Assembly (NCBI GenBank): GCA_035533435.1
Contig: DATLTX010000058.1
Span: forward strand, 27-64,026
DNA from: Candidatus Binataceae bacterium
GTDB taxonomy: Bacteria; Desulfobacterota; Binatia; Binatales; Binataceae
Direction: 5' to 3'
Length of the DNA stretch: 64,000 bases
Made by a program: the position numbers and the translations under genes. Numbering within the stretch: the stretch's first letter is position 1; each line of letters begins with the position of its first letter. The notes under the pieces are model-generated. The model saw nothing but the letters and a program-made list of their open reading frames with translations. It did not search any database and was not told where the DNA came from. Positions 29,100 to 63,689 of this stretch are shown piece by piece.

Positions 29100-29115
29100 A
29101 GCAATCGGCGTGCCG
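29100..29115 (-). promoter_or_regulatory. candidate sigma54 -24/-12 promoter for xfp-ackA-phosphorylase-atp unit
   Basis: Minus-strand cGGCACGccgaTTGCt with exact GG-N10-GC spacing, ~120 nt upstream of the xfp ATG. Confidence 0.55.
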
Positions 29116-29268
29116 CTGGTTCGCGCGCGAATTGCGATGTCTCGCAAAGCCGACGGCGCCGCCGCGAACCGACCAAACGGCACAACCGCCAGTCAAGCGA
29201 TGCACCCAAAAGACGCATCGCGCCGCTTGCGCAAGCTCATCGGCACGTGAAACCGCCTTCGTTCGAGT

Positions 29269-29284
29269 TGGCTCGATTTTAGCT
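29269..29284 (+). promoter_or_regulatory. candidate sigma54 promoter for CBS-Dx-metal-ABC operon
   Basis: TGGCtCGatttTaGCt with GG-N10-GC, 50 nt upstream of ATG 29335. It overlaps a 14/15-nt tandem direct repeat. Confidence 0.4.
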
Positions 29285-29300
29285 CCTCGATTCTAGCTCG
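29272..29300 (+). repeat. tandem direct repeat CTCGATTTTAGCTC / CTCGATTCTAGCTCG
   Basis: Two adjacent 14/15-nt copies with a single mismatch, overlapping the -12 element of the 29269 promoter candidate. Confidence 0.6.
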
Positions 29301-29334
29301 ATGATGAGAGTGCAAAGCAACGGAGGATGACGCG

Positions 29335-29817
29335 ATGAAAGTCGAAAACATGATGAATCGCGAGGTCAAAACCTGTCATCCGCAGGACCGCCTCAACCAG
29401 GGCGCCCAAGTCATGTGGGAAAATACCTGTGGCGCCGTTCCGGTCGTTGACCAGCAATCCCGCCCGGTCGGATTCCTCACCGACCGCGACATCTGCATGG
29501 CCGCCTACACGCAGGGCAAGCGCCTTCAGGAGATGACCGTCGAGGGCGCGATGTCGCATAAGATTGTCACCTGCCACGCCGATGACGACCTGTCGGCCGC
29601 GATGAGAACGATGGCCGAGACGGGACTTCGCAGGCTGCCGGTGACCGGCCAGGACGGCTCACTGGTCGGGATCCTGTCGCTCGATGATATTGCTTGCGAA
29701 GCGGGAAGAACGATGCGGGGCGGCGTGAATTTGGAGTTGCGCTCGCAGGTCGCCGACATCACAATCGCGGTCTGTCGAGGCCGGGTTAAGGCCCGTGCTC
29801 CAATCAAATCTGACTGA
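29335..29817 (+). CDS. CBS domain pair protein
   Basis: Two CBS motifs (VKTCHPQDRLNQGAQVMWENTCGAVPVVD... and IVTCHADDDLSAAMRTMAETGLRRLPVTG...). Confidence 0.8.
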   Translation: MKVENMMNREVKTCHPQDRLNQGAQVMWENTCGAVPVVDQQSRPVGFLTDRDICMAAYTQGKRLQEMTVEGAMSHKIVTCHADDDLSAAMRTMAETGLRRLPVTGQDGSLVGILSLDDIACEAGRTMRGGVNLELRSQVADITIAVCRGRVKARAPIKSD

Positions 29818-29825
29818 GGGTACTT

Positions 29826-30003: not shown

Positions 30004-30714
30004 GTGAAGAATTCGACGATTCTCGAGGTTGAGCGGCTGGCGGTCCGTTTCGGCTCGGCTGAAGTTTTCTCCAATCTGACCTTTCAGGTCGCGCGCGGCA
30101 GTTCTTTGGCGGTCATCGGACCCAACGGCGCGGGCAAGACGGTCCTGTTCCGGGCGCTGATCGGAGTTCAGCAGTACGCGGGATCCGTACGCTGGACGCC
30201 GGGAACCAAAATCGGTTACGTGCCGCAGAAGCTTGATATCGAGCGCGATCTTCCCATCACCGCGAACGATTTTCTGCGCGCAAGAACTTCTGTCGCGCGC
30301 GCAAGCAGGGACGAGCCGCTGCGCGTGCTGGCTCGGGTAGGGTTGGAACCCGCCCTGCTCCATCAGCAGATCGGCACGATGTCGGGCGGACAGTTTCAGC
30401 GGCTGCTCATTGCGTTCGCGCTAATTGGGCATCCCGATGCATTGCTGCTCGACGAACCTGCAGCCGGGATGGACGCGCCCGGGCAGGAGAAGCTCAATGA
30501 TACGCTGCGTTCGCTCCAGACCGATGACGGGGTGACGATCCTGTTCATCTCCCATGACTTGAGCGTCGTTTACGGCTACGCCTCACAGGTGCTGTGCCTG
30601 CGACGCGGAGACTCTCGTATGGGCCCACCCGAAGAAGTTCTTACCCCCGATCGACTGAAAGAAATCTACGGCACGCCGATCGCCTTCCACATTCACGAGA
30701 GCAATGGAAACTAG
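30004..30714 (+). CDS. metal (Zn/Mn) ABC transporter ATP-binding protein
   Basis: Walker A GPNGAGKT, signature MSGGQFQRLLIA, Walker B LLLDEP. ZnuC/MntA-like size. GTG start. Confidence 0.8.
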   Translation: MKNSTILEVERLAVRFGSAEVFSNLTFQVARGSSLAVIGPNGAGKTVLFRALIGVQQYAGSVRWTPGTKIGYVPQKLDIERDLPITANDFLRARTSVARASRDEPLRVLARVGLEPALLHQQIGTMSGGQFQRLLIAFALIGHPDALLLDEPAAGMDAPGQEKLNDTLRSLQTDDGVTILFISHDLSVVYGYASQVLCLRRGDSRMGPPEEVLTPDRLKEIYGTPIAFHIHESNGN

Positions 30715-31456
30715 GGCACTGGTGCTTTCAACCGAGATGGCAGTCGCGGCCGGGACGGTCGGATGCTTTGCCGTGATGCGCAAAATGACGCTGGCAGCCG
30801 ACGCGTTTTCGCACGTCGCCCTGCCCGGCATCGGTTTGGCCCTTGTCATGCGGCTTAATCCGCTGCTCGGCGCGGTCGCGGCCCTGATGCTCGGCGCGTT
30901 AATCATTTGGGGAGTCGAGAACCGCACCGGAATATCGACCGAAACCATCACCGGTGTGGTGTTTTCGCTCGCGCTGGCGATCGGCAGCATGATGGCTTCG
31001 GGTGAGGAGTTGATCGATGCGTTGTTTGGCGCCCCGGGCGCGCTGTCGAACACCGAGGCGACGGTGGGTCTGGTGGGCGGAGCGGCAGTCATCGCGTTCA
31101 TGCTGTTCGCCAGAGATCGACTGCTGATCTCGATGGTCTCGGCGGAAGTCGCGGCCACCTCCGGAATCAACGTGCGACGCCTGAACCTGGCCTATCTTGC
31201 CGCTTTCGCGCTGACCGTCGCACTCGGTCTGCGTTACCTTGGGGTTCTGCTGATGGGTTCGTTAATAATCATCCCGGCCGCAACCGCAAAGCGCATCGCC
31301 CGCAACATCAATGGAATGCTGGCGATCGCCGTGGGTGTTTCGGTCGCTTCCACGCTTCTCGGAACCTTGATCGCCGCTTCGATTCATCGCCCGACCGGCC
31401 CGATAATCATCACGATCGCGGGCGCGCTGTTTTTCCTGAGCCTTGCATGGCGCTGA
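30704..31456 (+). CDS. metal ABC transporter permease (ZnuB/MntB family)
   Basis: Eight-TM ABC-3 permease pattern (DAFSHVALPGIGLAL). Overlaps the ATPase gene. Confidence 0.8.
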   Translation: METRALVLSTEMAVAAGTVGCFAVMRKMTLAADAFSHVALPGIGLALVMRLNPLLGAVAALMLGALIIWGVENRTGISTETITGVVFSLALAIGSMMASGEELIDALFGAPGALSNTEATVGLVGGAAVIAFMLFARDRLLISMVSAEVAATSGINVRRLNLAYLAAFALTVALGLRYLGVLLMGSLIIIPAATAKRIARNINGMLAIAVGVSVASTLLGTLIAASIHRPTGPIIITIAGALFFLSLAWR

Positions 31457-31592
31457 AAGCGGTCGTCGCGGCGGCCGCCAGGTCCCCGATCTCGAGTGCA
31501 TTGGATGTATCGATCGGAGTCATCGGACGGTTTGATCCGCGATTGAAGGGCGTCGGGCCGGCGCTTATTGCACCGGCGACCAGTCACGCCAT

Positions 31593-31608
31593 TGGCATCG
31601 CCGTTGCT
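31593..31608 (+). promoter_or_regulatory. candidate sigma54 promoter for HlyD/ABC-2 efflux operon
   Basis: TGGCATcgccgTTGCT, ~15-25 nt upstream of the HlyD start codons. Confidence 0.4.
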
Positions 31609-31621
31609 CCTCTTGACCGAT

Positions 31622-32737
31622 ATGGACGTTCCCATGAGTCCCGAAACGGCTCAGGAATCCCGATTCAGCCGACGTCGAGTGGTGTTGTCGATCGCGGCGG
31701 CGGCGATCCTGGCGGGCGCTGCGACTTACGGGTTCCTGATTTGGCAGTATGCCGGAGCGCAGAAGTCGCTGACGCTTTACGGCAATGTCGATATCCGCGA
31801 AGCCCAGCTCGCATTCAACGACAACGAACGCATCACGCGGATGCTGGTGCAGGAAGGCGATTATGTCCATCCGGGTGAGTTGATCGCCGAACTGGAAACC
31901 GTGCGCTACGCGGCCGCCGCGCAGCAGGCCGAAAAGCAGGCGGCCAACCAGCGCCAGGTTCTGACCCGGATGCTAAACGGCTCGCGCCCGGAAGAGATTG
32001 TACAGGCGCGCTCAACGATGCAGGCGCTGGAGGCGACGCTTCGCGACGCCGAGATTACCTATCATCGCAATCTCGAACTCCGGCGGCATCTTGTCATCCC
32101 GGAGCAGACCCTCGACGACTCGATCGCGCAGATGAATTCGGCTCGGGGAAATTACGAAGCCGCGCACCAAGCCTATATCCTGGCCGTCAAAGGACCGCGG
32201 ATCGAAGATATCAACGCCGCCAGCGAGCTGCTCAAAGCCGACGAGGCGGCGCTGGCGCTGGCTGAGCGCGAACTCCACGACACGAAACTTTACGCGCCGT
32301 CGGTCGGCGTAATCGAAGACCGCATCCTCGAGCCGGGCGATATGGCGTCGCCGGGAGTGCCGGTCTTCACGATGGCGCTGACCAATCCGCTATGGGTGCG
32401 CGCATACGTTCCGGAGATTTACCTGGGCAGAATCTATCTGGGTATGAAGGCGTCGATCACGACCGACAGCTTTCCCGGCAAGATTTTTAATGGATGGATC
32501 GGCTACATATCGCCGACCGCCGAATTCACGCCCAAGAACGTCGAGACGCCCGAGCTGCGGACGCGGCTCGTTTACCAAGTGCGCGTATACGCCTGCAATC
32601 CGCAAAATGAACTCAGGCTCGGGATGCCCGCGACGGTGACGGTCGCGCTCGATCAACCGATCCCGAACGCAAACCAGGTAAACGGCCTTGGATGCGGAAA
32701 CCAAAGTCAGCGCGACGGACAAGCCGAAATCCGCTGA
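31622..32737 (+). CDS. HlyD-family membrane fusion protein
   Basis: N-terminal TM, a biotinyl/lipoyl-like hairpin and a long coiled coil, followed by a beta-barrel C-terminal domain. The start is uncertain (31622 or 31634). Confidence 0.7.
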   Translation: MDVPMSPETAQESRFSRRRVVLSIAAAAILAGAATYGFLIWQYAGAQKSLTLYGNVDIREAQLAFNDNERITRMLVQEGDYVHPGELIAELETVRYAAAAQQAEKQAANQRQVLTRMLNGSRPEEIVQARSTMQALEATLRDAEITYHRNLELRRHLVIPEQTLDDSIAQMNSARGNYEAAHQAYILAVKGPRIEDINAASELLKADEAALALAERELHDTKLYAPSVGVIEDRILEPGDMASPGVPVFTMALTNPLWVRAYVPEIYLGRIYLGMKASITTDSFPGKIFNGWIGYISPTAEFTPKNVETPELRTRLVYQVRVYACNPQNELRLGMPATVTVALDQPIPNANQVNGLGCGNQSQRDGQAEIR

Positions 32738-34493
32738 AGTCGCGCTGCGGCTCGAGTCCGTCAGCAAGCGTTTTCAGGAAGCCGCGCACACGGCTCAGGC
32801 GCTCGACCAGGTTAGTATCGTGGCCAAGCGCGCGATCATAACCGGACTGATTGGTCCCGACGGCGCGGGCAAAACCACCCTGATGCGCCTGGCCGCCGGG
32901 CTGCTCGCTGCCGACGCCGGAAAAATCACGGTGCTCGGAATAGACGTCGCCGCCGAGCCGCAGCGTGTTCAATCGATAATCGGATACATGCCGCAACGCT
33001 TCGGCCTGTACGATGACCTGAGCGTGCAGGAGAACCTTGACCTGTACGCCGACCTGCACGGCGTCGGCCCCGCCGAGCGGCCTGATCGATACGCCGATCT
33101 GATGCGGATGACCGGGCTTGCACCTTTCACAACCCGGCTTGCCGGCCGTCTGTCCGGTGGAATGAAGCAGAAGCTGGGCCTTGCCTGCGCGCTGGTCGGC
33201 TCGCCGCCGCTGCTGCTGCTGGACGAACCCACGGTTGGCGTCGATCCGGTCTCGCGCCGCGAACTGTGGGCGATAATCCATCGCCTCGTCGCCGATCGCG
33301 GCGCAACGGTCCTGCTCAGCACCGCGTACCTTGACGAAGCCGAGCGCTGTACCGAGGTCATCCTGATGCATGACGGCAAGCTGCTCGGCCAGGACGATCC
33401 GGCCGCGTTCACGAGCAAGCTCGCGGGCCGGAGCTTTCAAGTCTTCGCGCCGGGCATCTCAAAGCGCGCGCTCCAGGAGCGGGTGAGCAGAGCGCCGGGA
33501 GTTCTGGACGCGATAATTCAGGGCTCTCGAGTTCGCGTCGTTACCGAACAGGCGACGCCGCCAACCGCCGAGCAATTGGTCGGTGGCGAATACGCGGTCG
33601 AGATCGCGCCGGTTGCCCCGCGCTTCGAAGACAGCTTCGTAAGCCTGCTCAAAGGACCCGACGGTCGTGACATACCCGTCGCGAATCACGCGCCCGGCGC
33701 AGCGCCGCGAGCGAGCGGAGCTGGGGCGCCTGACGTGATCGCGGTGCGCAACCTGACCCGCCGCTTCGGGGATTTTTACGCCGTCCGCGACGTAACTTTC
33801 ACGGTCCGGCGCGGGGAAATTTTCGGTCTTTTGGGCGCCAACGGCGCTGGCAAATCGACCACGTTCCGGATGCTGTGCGGTCTGCTGCCGGCTTCGGAAG
33901 GCACCGTGCAGGTTGCGGGGCTCGATCTGCGCCGCGCGGCGGCGCGCGCGCGCGGGCGCATTGGTTACATGGCGCAGAAATTCTCGCTGTATGGCGACCT
34001 TTCGGTGTTGCAGAACCTGCGCTTCTTCAGCAGCGTCTATGGACTTTCCGGAGACCATCAGCGCGCGCGTCTCGCATGGGCGCTCGAGGAATTCGAGCTC
34101 GCTCCGTTCGCCGACGCGACCAGCCGCGATCTTCCGCTTGGTTTCAAGCAGCGCCTCGCGCTCGCGGTGGCGCTGATGCACCAGCCCGACATCCTGTTTC
34201 TCGACGAGCCGACCTCCGGCGTCGATCCGCTCGGACGGCGCGACTTCTGGCGCCGGATCAACGCGCTCGCCGAGAGCGGAATCACGATCATGGTCACTAC
34301 TCACTTCATGGAAGAAGCCGAGTATTGCGACCGATTAGTCATAATGGCGCAGGGCCGGATTCTCGCCGAAGGAACCTCCGAGGAAATGAAGGCGCGCTTC
34401 ACCACCGATGCGCTCCCGAACCCGACCATGGAGGACGCCTTTGTCGCGCTCATTACCGAGTCCGAGAGTCATCGCGTCGAGGCCGCCGCATGA
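32688..34493 (+). CDS. ABC transporter ATP-binding protein with duplicated ATPase domains (RbbA/YhiH-like)
   Basis: Two Walker A motifs (GPDGAGKTT, GANGAGKST) and two ABC signatures. The start may be a non-ATG codon downstream of 32688, since the called start overlaps the HlyD gene by 50 nt. Confidence 0.85.
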   Translation: MDAETKVSATDKPKSAEVALRLESVSKRFQEAAHTAQALDQVSIVAKRAIITGLIGPDGAGKTTLMRLAAGLLAADAGKITVLGIDVAAEPQRVQSIIGYMPQRFGLYDDLSVQENLDLYADLHGVGPAERPDRYADLMRMTGLAPFTTRLAGRLSGGMKQKLGLACALVGSPPLLLLDEPTVGVDPVSRRELWAIIHRLVADRGATVLLSTAYLDEAERCTEVILMHDGKLLGQDDPAAFTSKLAGRSFQVFAPGISKRALQERVSRAPGVLDAIIQGSRVRVVTEQATPPTAEQLVGGEYAVEIAPVAPRFEDSFVSLLKGPDGRDIPVANHAPGAAPRASGAGAPDVIAVRNLTRRFGDFYAVRDVTFTVRRGEIFGLLGANGAGKSTTFRMLCGLLPASEGTVQVAGLDLRRAAARARGRIGYMAQKFSLYGDLSVLQNLRFFSSVYGLSGDHQRARLAWALEEFELAPFADATSRDLPLGFKQRLALAVALMHQPDILFLDEPTSGVDPLGRRDFWRRINALAESGITIMVTTHFMEEAEYCDRLVIMAQGRILAEGTSEEMKARFTTDALPNPTMEDAFVALITESESHRVEAAA

Positions 34494-35614
34494 ATCGCGA
34501 GTTGATAATGAGACTGCGCGGACTGCTGCGCAAGGAGTCGCTCCAGATACTGCGCGATCCCTCGAGCATCGCGATCGCCTTCGTGATGCCGGTGGTGCTG
34601 CTTCTGCTTTTCGGCTATGGCGTTTCGCTCGATGCCAAGCGGGTGCCGCTCGCGCTGGTGGTTGAGCAGCCCAATCGCGACACTGCGAACTTCATCGCGG
34701 GATTCTTTCAGTCGCCCTACTTCGTGCCGGTCCGCTTCGCGACCATCCAGGAGGCCGACGCCGCGATGAACACGCGACGCGTCGAAGGGATCGTATGGCT
34801 GCGCAGCAACTTCAGCCGCCAGATGCTGAGCGGGGGCAATGCCCCGATTGGGCTGATCGTCAACGGCGTTGACGCCAACAACGCGCGCATTATCGAGGGC
34901 TACATCCAGCAGGTCTGGGCTAACTGGATCGCGCAGTTCTATGCCAGCCAGGGGCTGCGGCTGAAGACCCCGGTCCAGGCCGACGTGCGGATCTGGTTCA
35001 ACCCCGCCGTGGCCAGCACCGACTTTATCGTCCCCGGCCTCATCGCGGTCATCATGACTCTGACCGGAGCACTGCTGACCGCGATGGTGGTGGCACGCGA
35101 ATGGGAACGCGGCACGATGGAGGCACTGCTGGTCACTCCCGCCAGCATTCACGAGATTATCCTGAGCAAGCTCGTTCCATACTTCGTTCTCGGCATGGGC
35201 GGAATGATTCTGTCGGTAATGATGGCGTTGTGGCTATTCGCGGTCCCGTTGCGCGGCTCGATATGGGTATTGATGGCGTCGTCGGGAGCGTTTCTGTTGT
35301 GCGCGCTCGGGATGGGGCTGGTGATATCGACGGTCAGCAAGAACCAGTTCGTGGCCGGTCAAATCGCGATCATAGTAACCTACCTGCCGGCGTTCATGCT
35401 GTCCGGTTTCATATTCGATCTCCACAGCATGCCTGTCGTTATACAGTGGATTACTCATATTGTCGCGGCGCGCTATTTCGTGACTATCCTGCAGAGTGTA
35501 TTCCTTGCCGGCAACGTATGGTCCGTGACCGTGCCGAATATCATCGCATTGCTGGTAATGGCGGCGATCTTCCTCGGTATGGCGCGGCTTATGGCCCGCA
35601 AGAGTCTCGAGTGA
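34490..35614 (+). CDS. ABC-2 family transporter permease
   Basis: Six-TM ABC-2 permease. The start ATGA overlaps the ATPase gene stop. Confidence 0.8.
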   Translation: MNRELIMRLRGLLRKESLQILRDPSSIAIAFVMPVVLLLLFGYGVSLDAKRVPLALVVEQPNRDTANFIAGFFQSPYFVPVRFATIQEADAAMNTRRVEGIVWLRSNFSRQMLSGGNAPIGLIVNGVDANNARIIEGYIQQVWANWIAQFYASQGLRLKTPVQADVRIWFNPAVASTDFIVPGLIAVIMTLTGALLTAMVVAREWERGTMEALLVTPASIHEIILSKLVPYFVLGMGGMILSVMMALWLFAVPLRGSIWVLMASSGAFLLCALGMGLVISTVSKNQFVAGQIAIIVTYLPAFMLSGFIFDLHSMPVVIQWITHIVAARYFVTILQSVFLAGNVWSVTVPNIIALLVMAAIFLGMARLMARKSLE

Positions 35615-53700: not shown

Positions 53701-54030
53701 ATACCGCCGGCCGGGATTTATCCAGATTCTAACGGGTGTTAGATTGACTCGGCGGCGCGCTCTGCACTGCGACGATGGCGCATTTAGCGTCACTTTTCGC
53801 CGACCTGATTCCTCCGGTTACACCTTTGCGCCGCAAAGCTGGGCGCGCCGGCTCGATCGCGCGATGATCGCCCTCGACCGCGGGATGCGGCCCGGCGCTC
53901 GTTACAGCGCGCCGCCGATGTATCCGAATGCACCATCGCGGGTTGAACTCGCTGATTCCGACCGGCATCCTAATCTCAGCCTGTCCCTCTGCCAGCCTCG
54001 GAATCCTATGGGTTCGTCATCCGCCGTCGG

Positions 54031-54474: not shown

Positions 54475-54537
54475 CCGGTCCCGGAATATCGTCAGGAATC
54501 GGCGGCACGAACCAGCAAAACAACTAAAGAGGACTCT

Positions 54538-55068
54538 GTGATGACAGGCGAGCGACTCGAAACCGGCAAGGGAAAAATCCGCAGTCTCAACAGGCGCGGC
54601 ACGCGCTCGGACAAGAGTCCGCCCGTGGTGCGCAAGGCGCGCAGCTACTCTGACCCTTCGATCTGCGAAAAGTGCGGCTCGGTTTATACCTCGAAAACCT
54701 GGCGCGAGCGCCGCCCCCTTACGCGTGCGCTGATGAATCAGGCCACCTGGGCGACCTGTCCCGCCTGCGAACAAGTGGACAAGGGACAGTACTTTGGCCG
54801 AGTCTCGCTGTCCGGGCCGTATCTGATCGGCCACGTCGATGCGATCCGCGCGCGTATCGCGAACGTCGAGCGGCGGGCGCGCTTCACGCAACCCGAACGC
54901 CGCGTGGTCGCGGCGGACTTCGACGGATCGACCCTCGAGGTGCTGACCAGCTCGCAGAAGCTGGCGCATCGCATCGCCCACGAAATCGAGAAAGCTTTCG
55001 GTGGCAGCGTGACCTATTCGTGGTCGGATAGCGACGGCACCCTGGCGGCGACCTGGCATCGAGAGTAG
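54538..55068 (+). CDS. zinc-ribbon (2x CxxC) protein of unknown function
   Basis: CEKCG...(24 aa)...CPAC Cys4 ribbon at the N-terminus with a conserved-looking C-terminal domain. No family assignment possible by eye. Confidence 0.45.
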   Translation: MMTGERLETGKGKIRSLNRRGTRSDKSPPVVRKARSYSDPSICEKCGSVYTSKTWRERRPLTRALMNQATWATCPACEQVDKGQYFGRVSLSGPYLIGHVDAIRARIANVERRARFTQPERRVVAADFDGSTLEVLTSSQKLAHRIAHEIEKAFGGSVTYSWSDSDGTLAATWHRE

Positions 55069-57668
55069 TGGCCGACGTGGGCGCGGCGGGCGAATCGGGC
55101 GAGCTTGCGCGCGCAGCCACGCGAACCGGCGACCAACGCTCGTATCGCGGCCTTGACCGTGCCGAGGCCGCGCGCCGCCTTGCGCGACTGGGCCCCAATG
55201 AGTTCGTGCGGCTTCGATGGTGGGATCCGGTGGTGCGTTTTCTTCGCACCGCTGCGGATCCGATGGCGCTGATGCTGGCCGCCGCCGCCGCCGCGTACTA
55301 TGCGCTCGGCGAGCGCACCGATTCATATGTCCTTCTCGCGGCGATTGTTCCGGTGCTGGCGGTCGATGTGCTCCTTGCGGCGCGCTCGCGGGCGGCGCTG
55401 CGCAAACTGGCCGGCGCGGTCGCGGCGCGCGCACGCGTCATCCGCGACGGAACCGAAGTGGATATTCCCACCCGGGAAGTCGTTCCCGGCGACGCGTTGC
55501 TGCTCGAACAGGGCGACGTGGTGCACGCCGACGCGATCGTCCGCGCCAGCTCGAATCTGATCGCCGATGAGTCCCAATTGAGCGGCGAATCCGAGCCGGT
55601 CGCCAAGCTGCCGATTGCCGGCGCACCCGGCGACCCGAACCGCGTGTACGCGGGTTCGCGCGTCCTCGAGGGCAATGCACTGGTCGAAGTCACCGCAACC
55701 GGACCGAAAACCCGCTATGGCGATCTCGCGCGACTGACCGCCGCGGTTACGCGCCGCTCGACCCCGCTCGAGCGCAGGACCGCGCGGATCGTCGGCTGGA
55801 TGATCGCGGCGGCGATCGTTGTCGCGACGCTCGTGTTCGCGTTGCGAATACTGGCAGGCGTGCCCGCGGCGAGCGCGTTCCTCTACGCGATCAGCCTTGC
55901 GATGTCCGCCGCCGGCGAAGAATTCCTGCTCGTGCTGACCCTGTTCCTCAGCCTTGGCGCGTACCGGCTCGGCCGTCACGGAGTTCTGGTGCGCCGGTTG
56001 GCGAGCGTTGAAACCCTCGGTTCCACAACCGTCATATGCCTGGACAAAACCGGTACGCTGACCGCTGGCGAGTTCGCGCTCGAGACACATGATGCTCTCG
56101 ACCGCGACGGCACCGACGCGGCACTCTTGGAAGCCGCCGCGCTGGCGTGCGAGGCGCGTCCCGCCGATGCAATGGAACGCGAGATTCTGGCGCATTGCGT
56201 AACGCACGGAGTTGACGCGGACGCGTTGCATGCGCGATGGCGGCTGGTCCACGATTACTCATTCGATCCGGCCGGCAAACACATGTCGCACGTCTGGATC
56301 GAACGCGCGCAAAGCTCCGCCGCGGCCGCCGGGAAAATCGTGGCCAAAGGAGCGCTCGAGGGTATCCTCGAGCACTGCGACATCGCACCTGATCAAGCTG
56401 ACCGCGCCAAACGCGAAAACGCCCGGATGGCCTCGGTCGGGATGCGCGTGCTGGCGGTCGCCGGACGTGACGGACTGGCGCGCGAGTTCACCGGCGCACG
56501 CTGGCAAGACGAACGCGGGCTGCATCTGTTCGGACTGCTGGGATTTCGCGATCCATTGCGGCCCGCGGTTCCCGCCGCAGTCGCGCTATGCTACCGCGCG
56601 GGTATCAAGCTCAAGTTGATCACGGGGGACCATGCGCTAACCGCGCACGCGGTTGCCGAAGCCGCCGGGATGGGCGGCCACGCGTCGGAGATCATCACCG
56701 GATCGCAGCTCGACGCGCTGAGCCCGTCCGCTTTCGATCGCGCCGTGGACCGCTGCACGATTTTCGCGCGCACCCGGCCCGAGCAGAAGTACGCAATTGT
56801 CGAGGCGCTCAGACGCGCCGGCGAAGTGGTCGCGATGACCGGCGACGGGATCAATGACGCGCCGGCTCTCAGGCGCGCCGACCTGGGCGTTGCGATGGGG
56901 CGGCGCGGCACCGAAATCGCCCGTACAGCGGCGGATATCGTCCTGCTCGACGACGATTTCTCGGCGTTGGCGGTCACGATCCGCGAAGGCCGCAGGCTGC
57001 TCGAATCTATTCAGCGCGCGTTCCTATATCTGATCGGCTTCAAAGTGATGCTGGTGCTGGTTGCTTTCAGCGCGCCGATTCTGGGCCTGCCGCTGCTGCT
57101 CGTGCCAGTGACTCTTGTGTGGCTCGAACTAATTGTCCATCCGGTTTCCGCGCTGGCCTTCGAGGGCGGTATCCCCGACGAAGACGTGATGGCGCGGCCG
57201 CCGACTCGGCCCTCGGCTCCGCTGGTCGATCGATCGAGCGCCATCCGCGCTGCTATCGCGGGCGCGCTGCTCGCGGCGGCGGCGCTGAGCCTGTTCGCGA
57301 TGCGGATGCGTGCGGGAGAGAATTATGCGCGGACCGTTGCGATGGTGGTAATCGTGGCGGGCAGCGTGATGCTGGTAATTGCCGAGATGGCGGGTGCGCA
57401 GCCCTGGTCGCGTCTGCACGTGCCGCGGAGCCTTCGCTTCTGGACCGTGATGCTTGCCGTCGCGGCGAGCCTGCCCATCTTCATTTCGATCAAACCGATC
57501 GCGTCGCTGTTGATGCTACAATCGATTAGGCCGGCGGATTGGTCTATAGCATTGGCCGCCGCGGCCGCCGCCGTCGGCTGGCGCGCATGCGGCGCTCCCT
57601 CCTCCCGAGACTCGAGCGACGCACGATATGACGCCTCGGTCGCGAGTAGTCGCGGGGATGTCCGCTGA
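55068..57668 (+). CDS. P-type cation-transporting ATPase (P2/Ca2+-Mg2+-like)
   Basis: Phosphorylation motif DKTGTLT, hinge MTGDGINDAPAL, and 8-10 TMs. The GTG start overlaps the preceding stop. Confidence 0.85.
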   Translation: MADVGAAGESGELARAATRTGDQRSYRGLDRAEAARRLARLGPNEFVRLRWWDPVVRFLRTAADPMALMLAAAAAAYYALGERTDSYVLLAAIVPVLAVDVLLAARSRAALRKLAGAVAARARVIRDGTEVDIPTREVVPGDALLLEQGDVVHADAIVRASSNLIADESQLSGESEPVAKLPIAGAPGDPNRVYAGSRVLEGNALVEVTATGPKTRYGDLARLTAAVTRRSTPLERRTARIVGWMIAAAIVVATLVFALRILAGVPAASAFLYAISLAMSAAGEEFLLVLTLFLSLGAYRLGRHGVLVRRLASVETLGSTTVICLDKTGTLTAGEFALETHDALDRDGTDAALLEAAALACEARPADAMEREILAHCVTHGVDADALHARWRLVHDYSFDPAGKHMSHVWIERAQSSAAAAGKIVAKGALEGILEHCDIAPDQADRAKRENARMASVGMRVLAVAGRDGLAREFTGARWQDERGLHLFGLLGFRDPLRPAVPAAVALCYRAGIKLKLITGDHALTAHAVAEAAGMGGHASEIITGSQLDALSPSAFDRAVDRCTIFARTRPEQKYAIVEALRRAGEVVAMTGDGINDAPALRRADLGVAMGRRGTEIARTAADIVLLDDDFSALAVTIREGRRLLESIQRAFLYLIGFKVMLVLVAFSAPILGLPLLLVPVTLVWLELIVHPVSALAFEGGIPDEDVMARPPTRPSAPLVDRSSAIRAAIAGALLAAAALSLFAMRMRAGENYARTVAMVVIVAGSVMLVIAEMAGAQPWSRLHVPRSLRFWTVMLAVAASLPIFISIKPIASLLMLQSIRPADWSIALAAAAAAVGWRACGAPSSRDSSDARYDASVASSRGDVR

Positions 57669-57708
57669 TGGCGAACCTGGATTCACGAATGCGCGAGGAG
57701 AATTCGGC

Positions 57709-58173
57709 ATGCCGAAAAAAGTTTTCGAAAATGCGAGTCATAAACCGCACGCCGCAAACGCGGCGCGAAGGTGTGCGACCGGCGCTATCGCAGTAGCCGC
57801 GATCCTGGCGATTGCGATCGGCTCCGCACGCGCCGCCCAACCCGCCGGGCAGGCCGACTATCAGCAGTATTGCTCCGACTGCCACGGCAAGGACGCGAGG
57901 GGCAATGGCCCACTGGTGAAGCAAATCCCGATGGCGCCGCCACCGAGCGACCTGACCCTGCTCGCGAGCGCGCGCGGCGGAAAGTTTCCGTTCGATGACG
58001 TGGTCGATGTAATCGACGGGCGCAAGGCAATACCGTCCCACGCGCGTATCCAGATGCCGTTTTGGGGCGTTACGCTGCAGAAACCCGGTCAGGAATTTTC
58101 GCCTGCGAGCGACGCCGCGGTAAAGCAACGGATTCAGGCAATCGCGCGCTATCTCGAAGGCCTTCAGCGATGA
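57709..58173 (+). CDS. periplasmic monohaem c-type cytochrome
   Basis: Signal peptide and a CSDCH haem motif. GAGGAG RBS. Confidence 0.65.
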   Translation: MPKKVFENASHKPHAANAARRCATGAIAVAAILAIAIGSARAAQPAGQADYQQYCSDCHGKDARGNGPLVKQIPMAPPPSDLTLLASARGGKFPFDDVVDVIDGRKAIPSHARIQMPFWGVTLQKPGQEFSPASDAAVKQRIQAIARYLEGLQR

Positions 58174-59054
58174 CGAGCCGTGCTGCGCGAGTGCACTGCT
58201 TTCCCCGCGACGCCCGTCTGGCGCGCAGGGTCGCGGCACGCGCAGGTCTGGCCTGCGCGAAGATTCGCGTGCACCGCTTCCCCGACGGCGAGTCGATGCC
58301 GCTGGTTGCGTCAGCGCCGGGCAAGAATGCGATCCTGGTGCGCGCGCTCGACGGTCAGGGCGCCAACCTGTTCGATACTCTTCTGGCCGCCGACGCGTTG
58401 CGGCGCGCGGGCGCGCGGCGCGTAACGCTGGTCGCGCCGTATCTTCCCTACATGCGCCAGGACAAGGTCTTCCGCCCGGGCGAACCGATCTCGCAACGCG
58501 TGATTGGCGACTTGCTCGGCCGCTCTTTCGACCGCGTGATCACGGTCGAGCCGCATCTGCATCGCATCGCGCGCCTGGGAGAGGTCGTCGCCTGCCAGGC
58601 GGATTCAATCACGGCGGCGCCGGCGATTGCCGAGTGGGTAAAGCGCAATCGGCGCGACAGCCTGGTGGCCGGCCCGGATGCGGAATCACGTTCCTGGATT
58701 GAATCGATCGCGCGCCAGGCGGACACGGCGTCAGCGGTTGGCGTAAAGCATCGCGATAGCGACCGGCGGGTGCGGGTGCGCTTCGCCGCGCTCGCGCGTC
58801 GCTCGCGCGCGATTATTGTCGACGATATTGCAAGTTCGGGAGCGACGCTCGCCGCCGCCGCGCGGGCATTGCGCACGCGGGGAATCGCGGCGATCGATGT
58901 AATCGTGGTGCACGCGATTTTCGCCCCGGGCGCCATCGCGCGGATTCGGCGCGCGGGCGTGCGCCGGATCATCTCGTGCGACACGATCCGCCATCCGACC
59001 AACGCCATCAGCATCGCGCCGCTGCTGGCGGCGGCGCTCGAGAGGAAGACTTGA
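58170..59054 (+). CDS. ribose-phosphate pyrophosphokinase-like phosphoribosyltransferase
   Basis: Prs-like N-domain and PRPP-binding motif IIVDDIASSGATL. Start ATG overlaps the preceding stop (ATGA). Confidence 0.7.
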   Translation: MTSRAARVHCFPRDARLARRVAARAGLACAKIRVHRFPDGESMPLVASAPGKNAILVRALDGQGANLFDTLLAADALRRAGARRVTLVAPYLPYMRQDKVFRPGEPISQRVIGDLLGRSFDRVITVEPHLHRIARLGEVVACQADSITAAPAIAEWVKRNRRDSLVAGPDAESRSWIESIARQADTASAVGVKHRDSDRRVRVRFAALARRSRAIIVDDIASSGATLAAAARALRTRGIAAIDVIVVHAIFAPGAIARIRRAGVRRIISCDTIRHPTNAISIAPLLAAALERKT

Positions 59055-60458
59055 ATGCGCGAGCAAGGCACCGGCCATCCCTCCATTCTGCGCTTTCTGG
59101 GCGCGGCCGGCACGGTTACGGGAAGCAGGTTTTTGCTCACTGGCGGCGGACGCAGGGTACTGATCGATTGCGGCTTGTTCCAGGGACTCAAGGAACTTCG
59201 GCTGCGCAACTGGGAGCGGTTTGCGGCGGATCCGAAGAGCCTCGATGCGATCGTGATTACGCATGCGCATCTTGATCACAGCGGATACCTTCCGTCGATC
59301 GTGCGCGACGGCTATCGCGGGCGGATTCACGCCACGGCTTCGACCGTTGATCTGTGCCGAATCCTGTTGCCCGACAGCGGACACTTGCAGGAAGAGGAAG
59401 CGGAATACGCCAATCACGCGGGCTATTCCAAACACGCGCCGGCGCTGCCGCTGTACACTGAAGAAGACGCGCTTCGCACTCAGCAATATTTCACGCCGGC
59501 GCAGTTCGCTGAGCGCGTAGAAGTGGCAAACCGCATTCACGCGACGTTTCGCAGCGCGGGGCACATTCTCGGCTCCGCCAGCATCCTGCTTGAAACCCCT
59601 TCGCGCCGCCTGCTATTCAGCGGCGATCTCGGGCGCCCCAGCCATCCGCTGATGCGGCCACCCGCGCCGCTGCCCGAGGCGGAAATCGTCGCCGTCGAAT
59701 CGACTTACGGCGATCGGATCCACGAGGATCAGAAGTCCCTCGACGCGTTCGCCGAATCGATCGCGCAGACCGCCGCGCGCGGCGGTGTGATCGTTATCCC
59801 GTCGTTCGCCGTCGATCGCACTGAGGTTCTGCTGTTCCATTTGCGCGCGATGATCCAATCCGGCCGCATTCCGGGATTGCCCATTTACGTCGATAGTCCA
59901 ATGGCGCTGGCCGCGCTCAAGCTGTACAAGCGAGCCATCCTGAGCGGCGGCGCCGAGATTCGCCCTGAAGTCGCCGGCCGGCCCGAGGTGCTCGATCCCG
60001 GCCTGACCTCGGAAGTAACCTCGCGCGACGAATCGATCGCGCTCAACGGCCTCGACGGACCGATGATCATCATCTCGGCGTCCGGGATGGCCACCGGCGG
60101 CCGGGTGTTGCATCATCTTTCGCGCCGCCTGCCCGACGCGCGCAACGCGGTCATCCTGGTTGGCTACCAGGCCGAAGGAACCCGCGGGCGCGCGCTGCTC
60201 GAGGGTGCATCGTCGGTGAAGATGCTGGGCCGCTATGTCCCGGTGCGCGCGCAGGTGGTTAACGTGCCGGCGTTTTCGGTGCACGCCGACCGCGCTGAAA
60301 TTCTGGCGTGGCTCGCGACCGCTCCGCGGCGCCCGGAGCTGGCGTTTATCGTGCACGGCGATCCGGCCGCGGCGCAGTCGCTGTGCGCGGCGGTGCGCAA
60401 GGAGCTCGGCTGGAACGCCGTGGTTCCACGCCATCTCGAACAGGTTCGAATCGACTGA
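59055..60458 (+). CDS. MBL-fold metallo-hydrolase of the beta-CASP family
   Basis: HxHxDH motif (ITHAHLDHSG), beta-CASP motifs, and a C-terminal RNA-specificity-like domain. Confidence 0.75.
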   Translation: MREQGTGHPSILRFLGAAGTVTGSRFLLTGGGRRVLIDCGLFQGLKELRLRNWERFAADPKSLDAIVITHAHLDHSGYLPSIVRDGYRGRIHATASTVDLCRILLPDSGHLQEEEAEYANHAGYSKHAPALPLYTEEDALRTQQYFTPAQFAERVEVANRIHATFRSAGHILGSASILLETPSRRLLFSGDLGRPSHPLMRPPAPLPEAEIVAVESTYGDRIHEDQKSLDAFAESIAQTAARGGVIVIPSFAVDRTEVLLFHLRAMIQSGRIPGLPIYVDSPMALAALKLYKRAILSGGAEIRPEVAGRPEVLDPGLTSEVTSRDESIALNGLDGPMIIISASGMATGGRVLHHLSRRLPDARNAVILVGYQAEGTRGRALLEGASSVKMLGRYVPVRAQVVNVPAFSVHADRAEILAWLATAPRRPELAFIVHGDPAAAQSLCAAVRKELGWNAVVPRHLEQVRID

Positions 60459-60468
60459 GGAGGACGCG

Positions 60469-61974
60469 ATGTTTCGGCTGCGGCATCTATGCCTGGATAC
60501 TCTGCGCGAGCACGTGATCGTGATTCACGAACACGCGGTGCGAGCGGGCAATCTTGGCTTCAGTCCGCTGGATCGCGCGGTAGTGATGGGCCTGGTACCG
60601 GGCGGCGGCGCGCGCCACGAGATCACCGGCGTACTGAATTTCTGCCTCGACGACCTGATCGCGCCCGATGAAATCGGCGTCTCGGACCAGGCCTTTCGCG
60701 ATCTCGGCCTGCCCGAAGGAGCGCCGGTCGAAGCGACGCTGGCGGCCGCGCCGCGCAGCGTCGATCATGTGCGCGCGAAACTTGGCGGTACGCGGCTCGA
60801 CCGCGCCGCGTTTGACGCGATCCTGTCCGACGTCGTGCGGCATCGGTACTCGCGCGTCGAGCTCACGATGTTCGTGCTGGCGTGCGCGCTCAGACGCCTC
60901 GACCTCGACGAGCTCTGCTATTACACGCAGGCGATGATCGCGACCGGCGAGTCGCTGGATTTCGGCGGTGCGAAGGTCGCCGACAAGCACTCGATCGGCG
61001 GAGTTCCAGGCAATCGGACCACGATGATCGTGGTTCCGATCGTCGCGGCGCTCGGAGTCCTGATGCCCAAAACCTCGTCGCGCGCGATCACCAGCCCGGC
61101 GGGCACCGCGGACACGATGGGTGCAATCGCCATTGTCGAACTGAACCCGGCGCGGATGCGCGAGATCGTCGGCCGCGTCGGCGGCTGCATCGGATGGGGC
61201 GGTTCGCTCAGCCTTGCGCCCGCCGACGATATTCTGATCACCGTCGAGCGGCCGATGGAGATCGATACGGAAGCGCAGATGGTGGCTTCAATTCTGGCCA
61301 AGAAGAAAAGCGTCGGCGCAACCGATGTCGTGATCGATATTCCCGTCGGACCCACCGCCAAGGTTCGCAGCCAGGCCGCTGCCGAGCATCTGGCGGGGCT
61401 GTTCCACAGCATCGCCGAGCGGATCGGATTGCGTATCGAGGTCGAGAGCACGCTCGCACTTGGGCCGATCGGACGCGGAATCGGGCCGCGGCTCGAGGCG
61501 CTGGACGTGCTCTCGGTGCTTGGCGGCGAAAGCGTTCAGCTTGCCGATCTGCGGGAAAAATCGCTCTACCTTGCCGCGCGGATTCTCGAGATGACTGGCG
61601 CGGTCGCGCCGCACGGCGGTTACCGTGCGGCCCAGCGCACGCTCGACTCGGGAGCGGCGCGCAAAAAATTCCAGGAAATCGTCGCCGCGCAAGGCGCGCG
61701 CGAGCTGGCGCCCGAGGCTCCATATCGATGCGAGATCGCGTCGGAAGCCGACGGCAGAATCAGGGACATCGATTGCCTCGAGATCGCGCGAGTGGCAAAA
61801 CGCGCCGGGGCGCCAGCCAATATCAGCGCGGGAATCAGGCTTTTGAAGACCGTCGGAGAAGTGGTTGGCCGCGCCGAGCCGCTGTTTGAGATTCATGCCG
61901 CAAGCGCGGCGCAATTGGAGTTTGCACGGCAATACGCGGCGTCGCATCCGGGGATGTTCAGATTCGGTTTTTGA
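60469..61974 (+). CDS. thymidine/AMP phosphorylase family protein (glycosyl transferase family 3 fold)
   Basis: DKHSIGGVPGNRTT and TSSRAITSPAGTADTM motifs of pyrimidine-nucleoside phosphorylases. Start ATG with GAGGAGGA RBS. Confidence 0.75.
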   Translation: MFRLRHLCLDTLREHVIVIHEHAVRAGNLGFSPLDRAVVMGLVPGGGARHEITGVLNFCLDDLIAPDEIGVSDQAFRDLGLPEGAPVEATLAAAPRSVDHVRAKLGGTRLDRAAFDAILSDVVRHRYSRVELTMFVLACALRRLDLDELCYYTQAMIATGESLDFGGAKVADKHSIGGVPGNRTTMIVVPIVAALGVLMPKTSSRAITSPAGTADTMGAIAIVELNPARMREIVGRVGGCIGWGGSLSLAPADDILITVERPMEIDTEAQMVASILAKKKSVGATDVVIDIPVGPTAKVRSQAAAEHLAGLFHSIAERIGLRIEVESTLALGPIGRGIGPRLEALDVLSVLGGESVQLADLREKSLYLAARILEMTGAVAPHGGYRAAQRTLDSGAARKKFQEIVAAQGARELAPEAPYRCEIASEADGRIRDIDCLEIARVAKRAGAPANISAGIRLLKTVGEVVGRAEPLFEIHAASAAQLEFARQYAASHPGMFRFGF

Positions 61975-61992
61975 GCGTTTGACCGTGCGGCG

Positions 61993-63498
61993 CTATTCGA
62001 GACCGTACTTAGCGATCTTCGCATAGAGCTTCTTGCGCGAGATCTTGAGCAGCTTGGCCGCGGCGACTTTGTTGCCGCCGGTGCTCTCGATCGCGCGGCC
62101 AATCAGATCGCGCTCGGCGTCGGCGAAGCTACCCACGCTTTCACCGCCGAACCCGGCGGGAGCCGCCGCGCGCACCCCGGAGATCGCTTCGGGCAAATCA
62201 ACCAGGCGCAGCTCGGATGCGCGGCCAAAGGTAAAGGCGCTCTCGATCGCGTTGGCCAGTTCGCGCACGTTTCCCGGCCACTGATATGCGCTCATCGCCT
62301 CGAGCGCCGCTCGCTCGATTCCCACCACCGGCGCCAGGCGCATCCCGCGTTCGTTCATCACCTCGACAAAGTGATCGACGAGCAGCCCTATGTCCTCGAG
62401 CCGGTCGCGCAGCGGAGGCACCGCAAGCACGCTGGCCTGAAGCCGGTAGTACAGATCTTGCCGCAAGAGACCCACGCGGAGGGCTTCTTCAGGATCGCGA
62501 TTGGTCGAGGCGATCAGCCGCGCGTTGACTGCAATCTCGCGGGTTGCGCCGACAGGACGCACAGTCCGTTCCTGCAGGACGCGCAAGAGCTTGCTCTGGG
62601 TCTCGGCGCTCATCTCGGTAACTTCATCGAGCAGCAGCGTCCCACCCTCAGCGGCGCGAAACAGGCCCTCGTACTCGTTGTTCGCGCCGCTGAACGCGCC
62701 GCGTTTGTAGCCGAACAATTCGCTTTCGATCAGATCGCGCGGAATCGCGGCGCAATTCAGCGCGACGAACGGCGCGTTCGGCTTGGCGCCGCATTCGTGA
62801 ATTGCGCGCGCCACCAATTCTTTCCCCGTCCCGCTCTCCCCCACGATCAGCACGGTCCCGCGCGTCGCGCCCACCGCCTCGATCCGCTCGTACAGCTTGC
62901 GCATCGCAGGGCTCGCGCCGACCAGGCCGTGAAAGCGCGTGCGCTCGCCGGCGGGCAGCGCTGTCGCCTCGCGCTCGAGCGCCTGGATTCGCGCACCCGA
63001 GACCGCGGTGGTCGAGCGAAAGTAGGTGTCCGCCAGGATGATCATCCGGCAATGACTCAGCTTGTCGAAGGAAAGGTAGGTCTTGGGCAGCGACGGTGGA
63101 AAGACCGGAAACACCGCGGTCGCGCTTTCCTCGAACAGATGCATCGAAATGATCAGCTCGGAAAACGGAACTCCCCGGTCGGCCAGCGTGCGCCCAACCC
63201 GGCGGATATCCGCGGCGAAGCCCTCCATGTCGCGGGCCAGCAGATCGCGCAAAGTAGTGTCCAGCTCGGAGCCGAAGATCTCGAGGAACTCGGTCCTGGT
63301 CAGGGCGCGTGAATCACCGAAGTGCAGTACATAGAGGTTGTACCAGTTGGCCATCACTTCGTCGCGGTGGCGGCGAATCGACTCGAAGACTGGCGTCAGA
63401 GCCTCCAGCTCCTCGTCCCATAGAAGGTGGAAATATCGGGGCGCGGTGGACTGCGTTTTTGCGGGGTTTGAAGATTCAGACGGTGGCTTCATGCGCAA
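61993..63498 (-). CDS. sigma54-dependent transcriptional activator (bEBP) with non-receiver N-terminal sensory domain
   Basis: AAA+ Walker A GESGTGKE, GAFSGA (GAFTGA variant) sigma54-contact loop, and a C-terminal Fis-type HTH. The N-terminal ~190 aa lack the receiver Asp signature. Confidence 0.85.
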   Translation of the reverse strand: MRMKPPSESSNPAKTQSTAPRYFHLLWDEELEALTPVFESIRRHRDEVMANWYNLYVLHFGDSRALTRTEFLEIFGSELDTTLRDLLARDMEGFAADIRRVGRTLADRGVPFSELIISMHLFEESATAVFPVFPPSLPKTYLSFDKLSHCRMIILADTYFRSTTAVSGARIQALEREATALPAGERTRFHGLVGASPAMRKLYERIEAVGATRGTVLIVGESGTGKELVARAIHECGAKPNAPFVALNCAAIPRDLIESELFGYKRGAFSGANNEYEGLFRAAEGGTLLLDEVTEMSAETQSKLLRVLQERTVRPVGATREIAVNARLIASTNRDPEEALRVGLLRQDLYYRLQASVLAVPPLRDRLEDIGLLVDHFVEVMNERGMRLAPVVGIERAALEAMSAYQWPGNVRELANAIESAFTFGRASELRLVDLPEAISGVRAAAPAGFGGESVGSFADAERDLIGRAIESTGGNKVAAAKLLKISRKKLYAKIAKYGLE

Positions 63499-63673
63499 GT
63501 CTCAATGGTGACGGGGAGTGCCGTGTCCAACGGCTTAGTGTCGCCGATCGTAACACGCGACGCGCTCGTTGTACCCATCGAACGCATGTGACGCAACGAC
63601 AACATGTTCGTCCGAGGTAATCTTGCGCAAATGCATGCCGATTTTCGGACTCGCTTCAATCGGACCGCCATGC

Positions 63674-63689
63674 TGGCACGATTCGCGCA
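63674..63689 (+). promoter_or_regulatory. candidate sigma54 promoter divergent from bEBP gene
   Basis: TGGCACGattcgcGCa. -24 perfect, -12 GC only. 22 nt upstream of ATG 63711. Confidence 0.35.

Follow-up and report, generated by a model that had tools for sequence, protein, structure and literature searches.

Two described systems, NmpRSTU of Myxococcus xanthus and the lxa locus of Burkholderia cenocepacia, are the points of reference for the locus analyzed here, a putative sigma-54 regulon in a 64,000-nucleotide (nt) stretch (the window) of a Candidatus Binataceae genome (GenBank assembly GCA_035533435.1, contig DATLTX010000058.1, positions 27 to 64,026 of the forward strand). In M. xanthus, NmpR switches on seven sigma-54 promoters that serve 23 genes and are induced under hypoxia, with a CBS-protein operon, USP, cbb3 oxidase, and hemN-hemerythrin among the targets (PMC11841059). 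The Nmp signal runs through a multi-component phosphorelay, from the heme protoglobin histidine kinase NmpU to the receiver-domain response regulator NmpR. The lxa locus is a multi-operon low-oxygen island with an Anr/FNR-type TGA-N6-TCA motif at 17 intergenic points, and no involvement of sigma-54 has been reported for it (PMC3721108).

The part of the window from 16 to 64 kb holds about ten credible candidate sigma-54 (−24/−12) promoters, a gene for a sigma-54 activator, and a 17-bp motif that recurs upstream of most of the promoter sites (Table 1). Our reading, to which we assign a probability of roughly 0.6, is that this part is a survival and energy conservation island, most operons of which are transcribed from sigma-54 promoters under the neighboring activator, acting through the shared enhancer.

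The closest described regulatory scheme is NmpRSTU. Like it, the island combines sigma-54 promoters with an NtrC-family AAA+ activator and several operons, tends to have two candidate enhancer sites upstream of a promoter, as each Nmp promoter does, places sigma-54 sites before CBS-domain and USP genes (P6, P9, and P11) and respiratory genes, and includes a globin-fold sensor. Unlike NmpR, the island activator has its globin fold fused directly to the AAA+ domain and lacks a receiver domain. No histidine kinase was found in the window by the Pfam and NCBIfam scans that supplied its gene annotation, and the NmpR enhancer GCGCA-N5-TGCGC is not enriched (130 matches versus 162 expected) and does not cluster at promoters. 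The island gene set is also larger, adding phosphoketolase, acetate kinase, and an N-type ATPase.

With lxa, the island has in common its compact multi-operon form, a single regulatory motif recurring at most intergenic points, and part of its gene content: USPs, acetate kinase, an FtsH-type protease (BCAM0309), the BCAM0308 family, a metal-dependent RNase, a cation ATPase, ABC transport genes, and cytochromes b and c. Unlike in lxa, the recurring elements are −24/−12 promoters and a different upstream motif. Matches to the FNR-type TTGAT-N4-ATCAA with at most two mismatches are at chance level in the window (20 versus 14.9 expected), and the sole one in a gap holding a sigma-54 site, at 50745, falls in the downstream stretch that separates the P9 promoter element from the start codon. 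Given the overlap with lxa (PMC3721108) and with the Nmp regulon (PMC11841059), the statement in a first-pass annotation of this DNA that such a regulon is not a described system was too strong; what is new is how the genes are wired in Binataceae, with a one-component activator that has a globin fold and with an enhancer of different sequence.

Candidate sigma-54 promoters lie at operon starts

The first-pass annotation had listed ten 16-mers of the form TGGCAC-N5-TTGC at operon starts. All ten are present in the window with the coordinates, strands, and letters given, and nine have T or A at position 16 as claimed. The statistics of the bare pattern are weak: GG-N10-GC occurs at chance level (1,189 matches versus 1,155 expected), and TGGCAC-N5-TTGC with at most two mismatches gives 78 matches versus 65.6 expected. 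With at most one mismatch, there are 11 matches versus 4.5 expected (none of 100 shuffles reached 11), 10 of which fall within 29 to 54 kb. The real signal comes from the position of the sites.

Because circular reasoning had to be avoided, the matrix used for scoring was built from foreign orthologous promoters only (27 non-identical sites, all upstream of orthologs of the R2-like gene). We counted as promoter positions those that are intergenic, have the orientation of the gene that follows, and are at most 200 nt from the start of that gene; they make up 3.3% of all positions. Eleven of the 13 window matches of at least 10 bits were in promoter positions (binomial P = 4 × 10−15). Several start codons had been chosen by us from ribosome-binding sites, signal peptides, domain boundaries, and ortholog lengths; with the longest open reading frames (ORFs) in their place, at least 6 of the 13 matches were still in promoter position. 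The non-island part (1 to 16 kb) contained no match in such a position. The matrix was specific, reaching at best 3.5 bits upstream of about 60 orthologs of the second gene of the R2-like operon and mostly less than 6 bits upstream of about 60 FtsH orthologs from beyond the source population. The twelve candidate sites in the island, P1 to P12, score 10.0 to 23.2 bits, apart from P2 (<8 bits).

Three further matches were recorded. The strongest, at 625 to 640 (−) (TGGCGCGGCGATTGCT; 14.1 bits), is outside the island; no downstream gene is discernible on that strand, and the match is antisense to an ORF at 2 to 517 (+), itself without a Pfam match. The other two, both probably due to chance, are intragenic: 50026 to 50041 (−) within a Usp-CBS gene (8.5 bits; one consensus mismatch) and 49267 to 49282 (+), antisense within the R2-like gene (11.4 bits).

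Sites were then compared across 167 loci from other genomes and metagenomes (labeled L001 and so on; 2.16 Mb in the enhancer scan described below). Sites were conserved upstream of orthologs for P5, P8, P9 (P6 belongs to the same gene family), P10, P11, and P12, and five promoter families are conserved in other Binataceae despite diverged flanks. An equivalent of P8 precedes the R2-like ortholog in 27 other genomes, where the flanks are not conserved. A counterpart of P5, scoring 16.1 bits, is present in L017, 35 nt upstream of the start of the nucleotidyl transferase ortholog. Orthologs of P9 in L081, L085, and L088 have TGGCACRRGAATCGCT-like sites at −54 to −71, and P6 and P9 share with other Usp-CBS promoters an unusual TCGC −12 element. 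The locus orthologous to P10 in L083 carries TGGCACGCCCGATGCT. The TGGCMGCCKAATTGCT of P11 is retained in L081, L083, and L085 despite diverged flanks, with equivalent sites at the same −41/−42 position in L088 and L117, and L081, L083, and L085 have the P12 element unchanged or almost unchanged.

Judged from these sequence comparisons, P6, P8, P9, P10, P11, and P12 (39998, 49725, 50788, 53685, 54031, and 63674) are the best-backed sites and well supported as candidate promoters; P3 (31593) and P7 (41037) are supported by their scores together with a candidate enhancer. P3 is in a 174-nt gap behind the ABC-3 gene, and the HlyD start codon downstream of it is uncertain. Nine of the ten sites first listed thus keep some support, and two absent from that list, P5 (39841) and P4 (38805), both (−), are added. 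The exception is P2 (29269), which is not supported as a sigma-54 promoter: its score is low, and no similar site is present upstream of the CBS1 orthologs in L102, L104, L117, and L121. A tandem direct repeat (CTCGATTTTAGCT / CTCGATTCTAGCT) at 29273 to 29300 overlaps P2. P4 is likewise not conserved, given that only 1 of about 60 FtsH orthologs outside the source population reaches 10 bits.

It is very improbable that most of the matches are chance or non-functional occurrences and that the operons use promoters of other types. Such an explanation fits the chance-level counts of the two-mismatch pattern, the lack of conservation at P2 and P4, and the failure of tblastn to find rpoN in the window or the 167 compared loci, but not the enriched placement of the sites, their conservation within diverged upstream regions in up to 27 genomes, their co-occurrence with a second, independently enriched motif, or the presence of a sigma-54 activator gene in the island itself. 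A consensus scan, in general a weak form of evidence, found no sigma-70 promoter in the gaps between 38.7 and 54.2 kb. From the many annotated sigma-54 activators in Binataceae, we infer that rpoN is present in the lineage, and sigma-54 presumably acts at the sites described here.

A paired 17-bp motif precedes most of the candidate promoters

When the window was compared with its relatives, the regions upstream of the CBS and Usp-CBS promoters were seen to contain conserved blocks, which reduced to a 17-bp motif, roughly TGTNNCCGATCGNNNCA, that lies 60 to 190 bp upstream of most of the candidate promoters, usually as pairs whose starts are 31 to 34 bp apart. These candidate enhancer sites, among them those at P8, P9, and P11, are labeled TGTNNCCGATCG sites. 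Under a pair rule (TG[TA]NNCC[AG][AT] twice, starts 29 to 36 nt apart), the window contains 4 pairs versus 0.17 expected (maximum of 2 in 200 shuffles). All four are in gaps that hold a sigma-54 site, including the pair at P7, which was not used in defining the motif.

The same association was found in foreign loci, where 43 matches of at least 13 bits occur in the 37.2 kb lying 10 to 250 nt upstream of 155 sigma-54 sites, a density of 1.16 per kb compared to 0.070 per kb over the full 2.16 Mb (16-fold). In relatives, promoter and motif together precede genes for Hsp20, a PRPP-synthase-like protein, an FtsX-type permease, a Crp-like regulator, and an acyl-CoA dehydrogenase. Of the 14 R2-like promoters from Binataceae, 12 have the motif, placed at −100 to −140. 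In other orders and phyla, the R2-like gene retains its sigma-54 promoter while the motif is absent, which fits a lineage-specific activator. The exact composite element seen at P9 (block-N17-block) has only two occurrences in the window. Of the P10/P11 pair, L081 and L085 retain both blocks, and L088 and L117 retain the first; both blocks of the pair in the gap between the activator and the small gene are conserved in L081, L083, and L085.

Paired sites about three helical turns apart and 60 to 190 bp upstream of a −24/−12 promoter are the standard layout for enhancer-binding proteins. Taken with the sequence evidence above, the 17-bp motif is likely the binding site of the activator. The first-pass annotation had proposed looking for palindromic activator sites upstream of the promoters. 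The shared motif is only loosely palindromic. That loose symmetry would suit another regulator, a repressor or a Crp-type protein, with the true enhancer of the activator elsewhere, as would the proximity of the motif to the −24 element at some foreign promoters (as near as 52 to 75 nt upstream) and the Crp-like regulator gene of L004, which is itself behind such a promoter. We nevertheless regard this as improbable, given that site pairs, spacing, and distance follow the usual enhancer-binding layout (compare the NmpR sites; PMC11841059) and that the motif is also found in the upstream region of the activator gene.

Three alternative descriptions of shared upstream sequence were discarded: TTCGGATAMA and two longer blocks turned out to be particular instances of the more general 17-bp motif, the 9-mers common to upstream regions were dominated by GC-rich words and by divergent promoters lying on one and the same DNA, and TTGC-Nx-GCAA palindromes were not specific. 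Separately, a perfect inverted repeat, CTAAC-N4-GTTAG, is present at 53729 to 53742, about 28 to 30 nt upstream of the −24 element of P10. It is kept at equal distance in L083 (about 19595 to 19610), with a degenerate copy at P8 near 49800, and may be the site of a bending protein or a second regulator.

The activator and its globin-fold sensor domain

The 501-amino-acid (aa) product of the activator gene has the features ascribed to it in the first-pass annotation, namely, a GAFSGA loop, an AAA+ domain (Sigma54_activat, PF00158; 215.6 bits against a cut-off of 20.2), and a helix-turn-helix (HTH) domain, the last being C-terminal and of the Fis type (HTH_8). An AAA+ lid and the Walker motifs GESGTGKE and LLLDEV are also present, and of the loop residues, G266, F268, G270, and A271 show no variation and A267 and S269 occur in at least 90% of 46 family members. 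On these sequence features, the protein is taken to be a real sigma-54 activator. An exact-sequence look-up returned no match, and Binataceae have many homologs with 65 to 91% identity, each about 500 aa in length and with no Pfam domain in the first 190 residues. Orthologs (72 to 91% identity) are convergent with the CBS operon or its remnants and divergent from the small gene. The latter gives weak Response_reg matches (E values of 0.005 to 0.007, under the Pfam cut-off), and its product is receiver-like, with a DD...D...KP pattern seen by eye. No sigma-54 site was found upstream of the activator gene; the enhancer pair 41 to 88 nt upstream of its start codon makes autoregulation possible.

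The N-terminal domain of the activator (residues about 22 to 178) is a globin fold, like those of sensor globins and RsbR. At the level of sequence, it matches no globin in Pfam or PDB, and aligning it to HemAT with hhalign yielded a single weak match of 15 columns in the G helix. A PDB profile search with the domain was set aside, having produced only chance matches such as S100-A9. No histidine is present in the predicted F helix (residues 90 to 106, MEGFAADIRRVGRTLAD) or in the family consensus at this position, so the canonical heme ligand is apparently absent, as it is in RsbR. The invariant histidines of the family are His58, His119, and His148. The sensor domain family comprises 214 clusters among 1.84 billion representative proteins. 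It is modular, like the domains of globin-coupled sensors and the non-heme globin domain of RsbR, and differs from globin-coupled sensors in having no predicted canonical F-helix histidine. Most full-length members are sigma-54 activators; others are a PAS-histidine kinase-receiver protein, GAF proteins, and a DUF2249-hemerythrin fusion. In this last protein (P0138; 506 aa), the globin-like sensor domain occupies residues 237 to 418, downstream of DUF2249 and hemerythrin, which hints at a link to oxygen or iron sensing. In the literature library searched, which was incomplete, we found neither a globin-fold domain fused to a sigma-54 activator, nor a sigma-54 AAA+ output among globin architectures, nor a description of sigma-54 regulation in Binatota.

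One regulon under one activator, or several

In the mechanism we propose, sigma-54 RNA polymerase would form closed complexes on TGGCAC-N5-TTGC-type elements 22 to 121 nt upstream of the first start codons, and a dedicated enhancer-binding protein, most likely the activator encoded at 61993 to 63498, would bind the TGTNNCCGATCGNNNCA-type 17-bp sites. On sensing its signal, the globin-fold domain would release the AAA+ domain, leading to oligomerization, ATP hydrolysis, and promoter opening. By analogy with lxa and Nmp, the inducing signal would be low oxygen or low energy. Predicted targets include substrate-level ATP formation from stored glucan (glucan phosphorylase, phosphoketolase, and acetate kinase), the N-type ion-pumping ATPase, an alternative Rieske/cytochrome b chain, the Usp and CBS nucleotide-sensing proteins, a P-type ATPase, and nucleotide salvage.

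A candidate enhancer shared by most sites matches the prediction of one regulon with one activator, and the sites behave as a set of promoters at operon starts, as the proposal of an RpoN regulon in the first-pass annotation implied. Its scope was overstated. Coverage of "essentially every transcription unit" does not hold, since no site precedes the activator gene or the ABC genes at 30004 and 34924 and FtsH has just the weak, non-conserved P4. The P1 operon has a strong −24/−12 match and lacks the shared enhancer, none being found in 28979 to 29334. The P1 operon may answer to a different activator.

The missing enhancer at P1 belongs to a group of observations that weigh against our main reading, together with the absence of rpoN from the compared sequence and the unconserved P2 and P4, at which no enhancer motif was found either. 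The enhancer matrix was derived from window sites, and the pairing of this activator with this motif is drawn from their proximity and co-distribution. Close paralogs of the activator exist, one of which, 74% identical, adjoins Hsp20 in L087. The missing F-helix histidine leaves heme-based oxygen sensing unproven, and in the comparison with lxa, the BCAM0308-like protein scores 93.9 bits, just under the curated cut-off of 100.

In an alternative reading, the sigma-54 promoters are real but fall into several regulons with different activators, and the island activator controls just its neighbors, namely, the small receiver-like gene, the Usp-CBS genes, and the CBS operon. Besides P1, the weak enhancers at P5, P6, and P10, the many paralogs at 65 to 74% identity, the independent movement of modules between genomes, and the R2-like promoters outside Binataceae that have a sigma-54 element without this enhancer are in line with such a division. 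Against it stand the equal 17-bp motif and pair spacing at P3, P7, P8, P9, P10/P11, and P12 and the occurrence of the motif in relatives at promoters of varied island-type genes, and we consider it rather unlikely. Since the motif is missing at P1, which serves the largest operon, the alternative nevertheless carries real weight. We prefer the reading of a single sigma-54 regulon covering most of the island.

Parts of the island recur elsewhere in other arrangements. The module of the R2-like and 161-aa proteins is present in Binatia, Myxococcota, gammaproteobacterial, Actinomycetota, and Chloroflexota metagenome-assembled genomes (L001 to L080), almost never syntenic with the remaining island, and many Binatia and Myxococcota copies retain the sigma-54 promoter. 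In L124, L129, and L139, the FtsH paralog and phosphoketolase genes are again adjacent, with neither the enhancer motif nor sigma-54 sites, including upstream of the xfp orthologs, which points to sigma-54 wiring specific to one lineage. FtsH orthologs in L099, L105, L107, and L113 to L115 share a conserved upstream block (TTGTGAACGTTGCAA-GGGCGAAGGATGCGG) that may be a different regulatory element for FtsH.

Gene content and genomic context

GC content is even throughout the window (0.59 to 0.66) with no compositional break seen, and a recent foreign insertion of the island was rejected on this ground. The closest relatives are metagenome-assembled genomes of Candidatus Binataceae/Binatus, phylum Binatota, and two Joint Genome Institute (JGI) metagenome contigs are identical to the window along 22 kb. 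An FtsH-anchored metagenome scan for syntenic islands returned almost none and provided a negative control.

The putative P1 operon, the largest, consists of co-stranded genes with short gaps. The N-type F-ATPase operon (16235 to 22955, −) has the characteristic order atpD-C-Q-R-B-E-F-A-G (beta-epsilon-AtpQ-AtpR-a-c-b-alpha-gamma) and lies immediately downstream of the phosphoketolase, acetate kinase, and alpha-glucan phosphorylase genes. In the respiratory operon, the first gene is followed by genes for two small c-type cytochromes, an FeS flavoprotein, a Rieske protein, cytochrome b, and a multiheme cytochrome c. With the two cytochrome genes filling what had appeared to be a gap, the gene for the 520-aa protein and those for the FeS flavoprotein, Rieske protein, and cytochrome b form one likely operon. 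The CBS operon encodes CBS, BCAM0308-like, P-type ATPase, cytochrome c, PRPP-synthase-like, beta-CASP hydrolase, and AMP/thymidine-phosphorylase-like proteins.

Table 1. Candidate promoters, candidate enhancer sites, and genes of the window
Feature	Position	Strand	Sequence	Score (bits)	Remarks
P1	29100-29115	−	CGGCACGCCGATTGCT	18.0	121 nt upstream of phosphoketolase start; evidence is the score alone
P2	29269-29284	+	TGGCTCGATTTTAGCT	<8	Upstream of CBS protein gene; doubtful
P3	31593-31608	+	TGGCATCGCCGTTGCT	13.4	Upstream of HlyD/ABC-2 exporter genes
P4	38805-38820	−	TGGTGCGGATTGTGCG	10.6	34 nt upstream of FtsH; doubtful
P5	39841-39856	−	TGGCAGACTCCTTGCG	14.4	33 nt upstream of nucleotidyl transferase
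P6	39998-40013	+	TGGCACGACCTTCGCT	14.0	27 nt upstream of Usp-CBS gene 40041-40845
P7	41037-41052	+	AGGCACGGTTGTTGCT	11.6	46 nt upstream of secreted 520-aa protein gene
P8	49725-49740	−	TGGCACGTCCTTTGCG	23.2	Exact consensus; 48 nt upstream of R2-like gene
P9	50788-50803	−	TGGCACGACAATCGCT	13.2	55 nt upstream of Usp-CBS gene 49908-50732
P10	53685-53700	−	TGGCACAGCCGATGCT	15.1	43 nt upstream of DUF1329-DUF7453 genes
P11	54031-54046	+	TGGCAGCCTAATTGCT		35 nt upstream of CBS gene, first in operon 54082-61974
P12	63674-63689	+	TGGCACGATTCGCGCA	10.5	57 nt upstream of small receiver-like gene
P3 enhancer candidate	31506-31522		TGACTCCGATCGATACA	20.8	Single, near-palindromic; 71-87 nt upstream of P3
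P6 enhancer pair	39919-39935, 39952-39968				Weak; in P5/P6 gap
P7 enhancer pair	40850-40900	+	TGATGCCGATTGAGGCA + TGTCGCCATCGGCAACA	17.6 and 15.3-17.4	Starts 34 nt apart
P8 enhancer sites	49845-49880	+	TGACGCCGATCGAATCA + TGTGTCCGATCGAACCG	19.9 and 17.6	Starts at 49845 and 49864
P9 enhancer pair	50894-50944	+	TGTATCCGAACGCGCCA-N17-TGATTCCAACCGGC		
P10 enhancer pair	53776-53792, 53806-53822				Weak
P10/P11 enhancer pair	53919-53969	+	TGTATCCGAATGCACCA-N17-TGATTCCGACCGGC		Divergent promoters
Activator/small-gene gap pair	63539-63586	+	TGTCGCCGATCGTAACA + TGTACCCATCGAACGCA		Starts 31 nt apart
Housekeeping-type genes	1-16 kb				Unrelated to island
Putative P1 operon	16235-28978	−			Phosphoketolase (xfp), acetate kinase (ackA), DUF3417 alpha-glucan phosphorylase, N-type F-ATPase; Pfam
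CBS protein (CBS1) gene	29335	+			
ABC, HlyD, ABC-2 export genes	30004-36732	+			
FtsH paralog	36755-38770	−			
Nucleotidyl transferase	38878-39807	−			
Usp-CBS gene	40041-40845	+			
Respiratory operon	41099-48032	+			First gene (start 41099): secreted 520-aa protein of unknown function
Two small secreted monoheme c-type cytochromes	42676-42960; 42988-43356	+			Occupy apparent 445-nt intergenic gap
R2-like protein and 161-aa protein	48100-49676	−			Two-gene module
Usp-CBS gene	49908-50732	−			
DUF1329 and DUF7453 genes	50976-53641	−			
CBS operon	54082-61974	+			
Sigma-54 activator	61993-63498	−			501 aa
Small gene, 5′ part	63747-64000	+			Divergent from activator gene; 106-145 aa in relatives; orthologue alignment

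Implications for Binatota

More tentatively, the activator may represent an undescribed family of one-component sigma-54 activators, with a globin fold lacking the canonical proximal histidine, that directly senses oxygen, redox state, or an energy-related ligand and commands a dormancy or hypoxia regulon of Binatota through the lineage-specific TGTNNCCGATCGNNNCA enhancer. If true, this would be an independent rewiring of a gene set run elsewhere by FNR/Anr (lxa) or by a globin-kinase phosphorelay (Nmp), so that the same survival gene set would stand under three different control devices in three lineages. The analysis also points to a small, uncharacterized globin-fold sensor family, which would be of greater interest if the domain turned out to sense directly in a way not seen before. 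The short, well-defined pairs of promoter and enhancer could be studied in a heterologous host without culturing the organism.

For an uncultured phylum that is widespread in soil and peat, the result is a regulatory map of promoters, enhancer motif, activator, and target modules. The map predicts how these presumed aerobes would survive shortage of oxygen or energy: by glucan breakdown, the phosphoketolase-acetate kinase route, and the N-type ATPase, together with an alternative electron chain and the Usp and CBS proteins.

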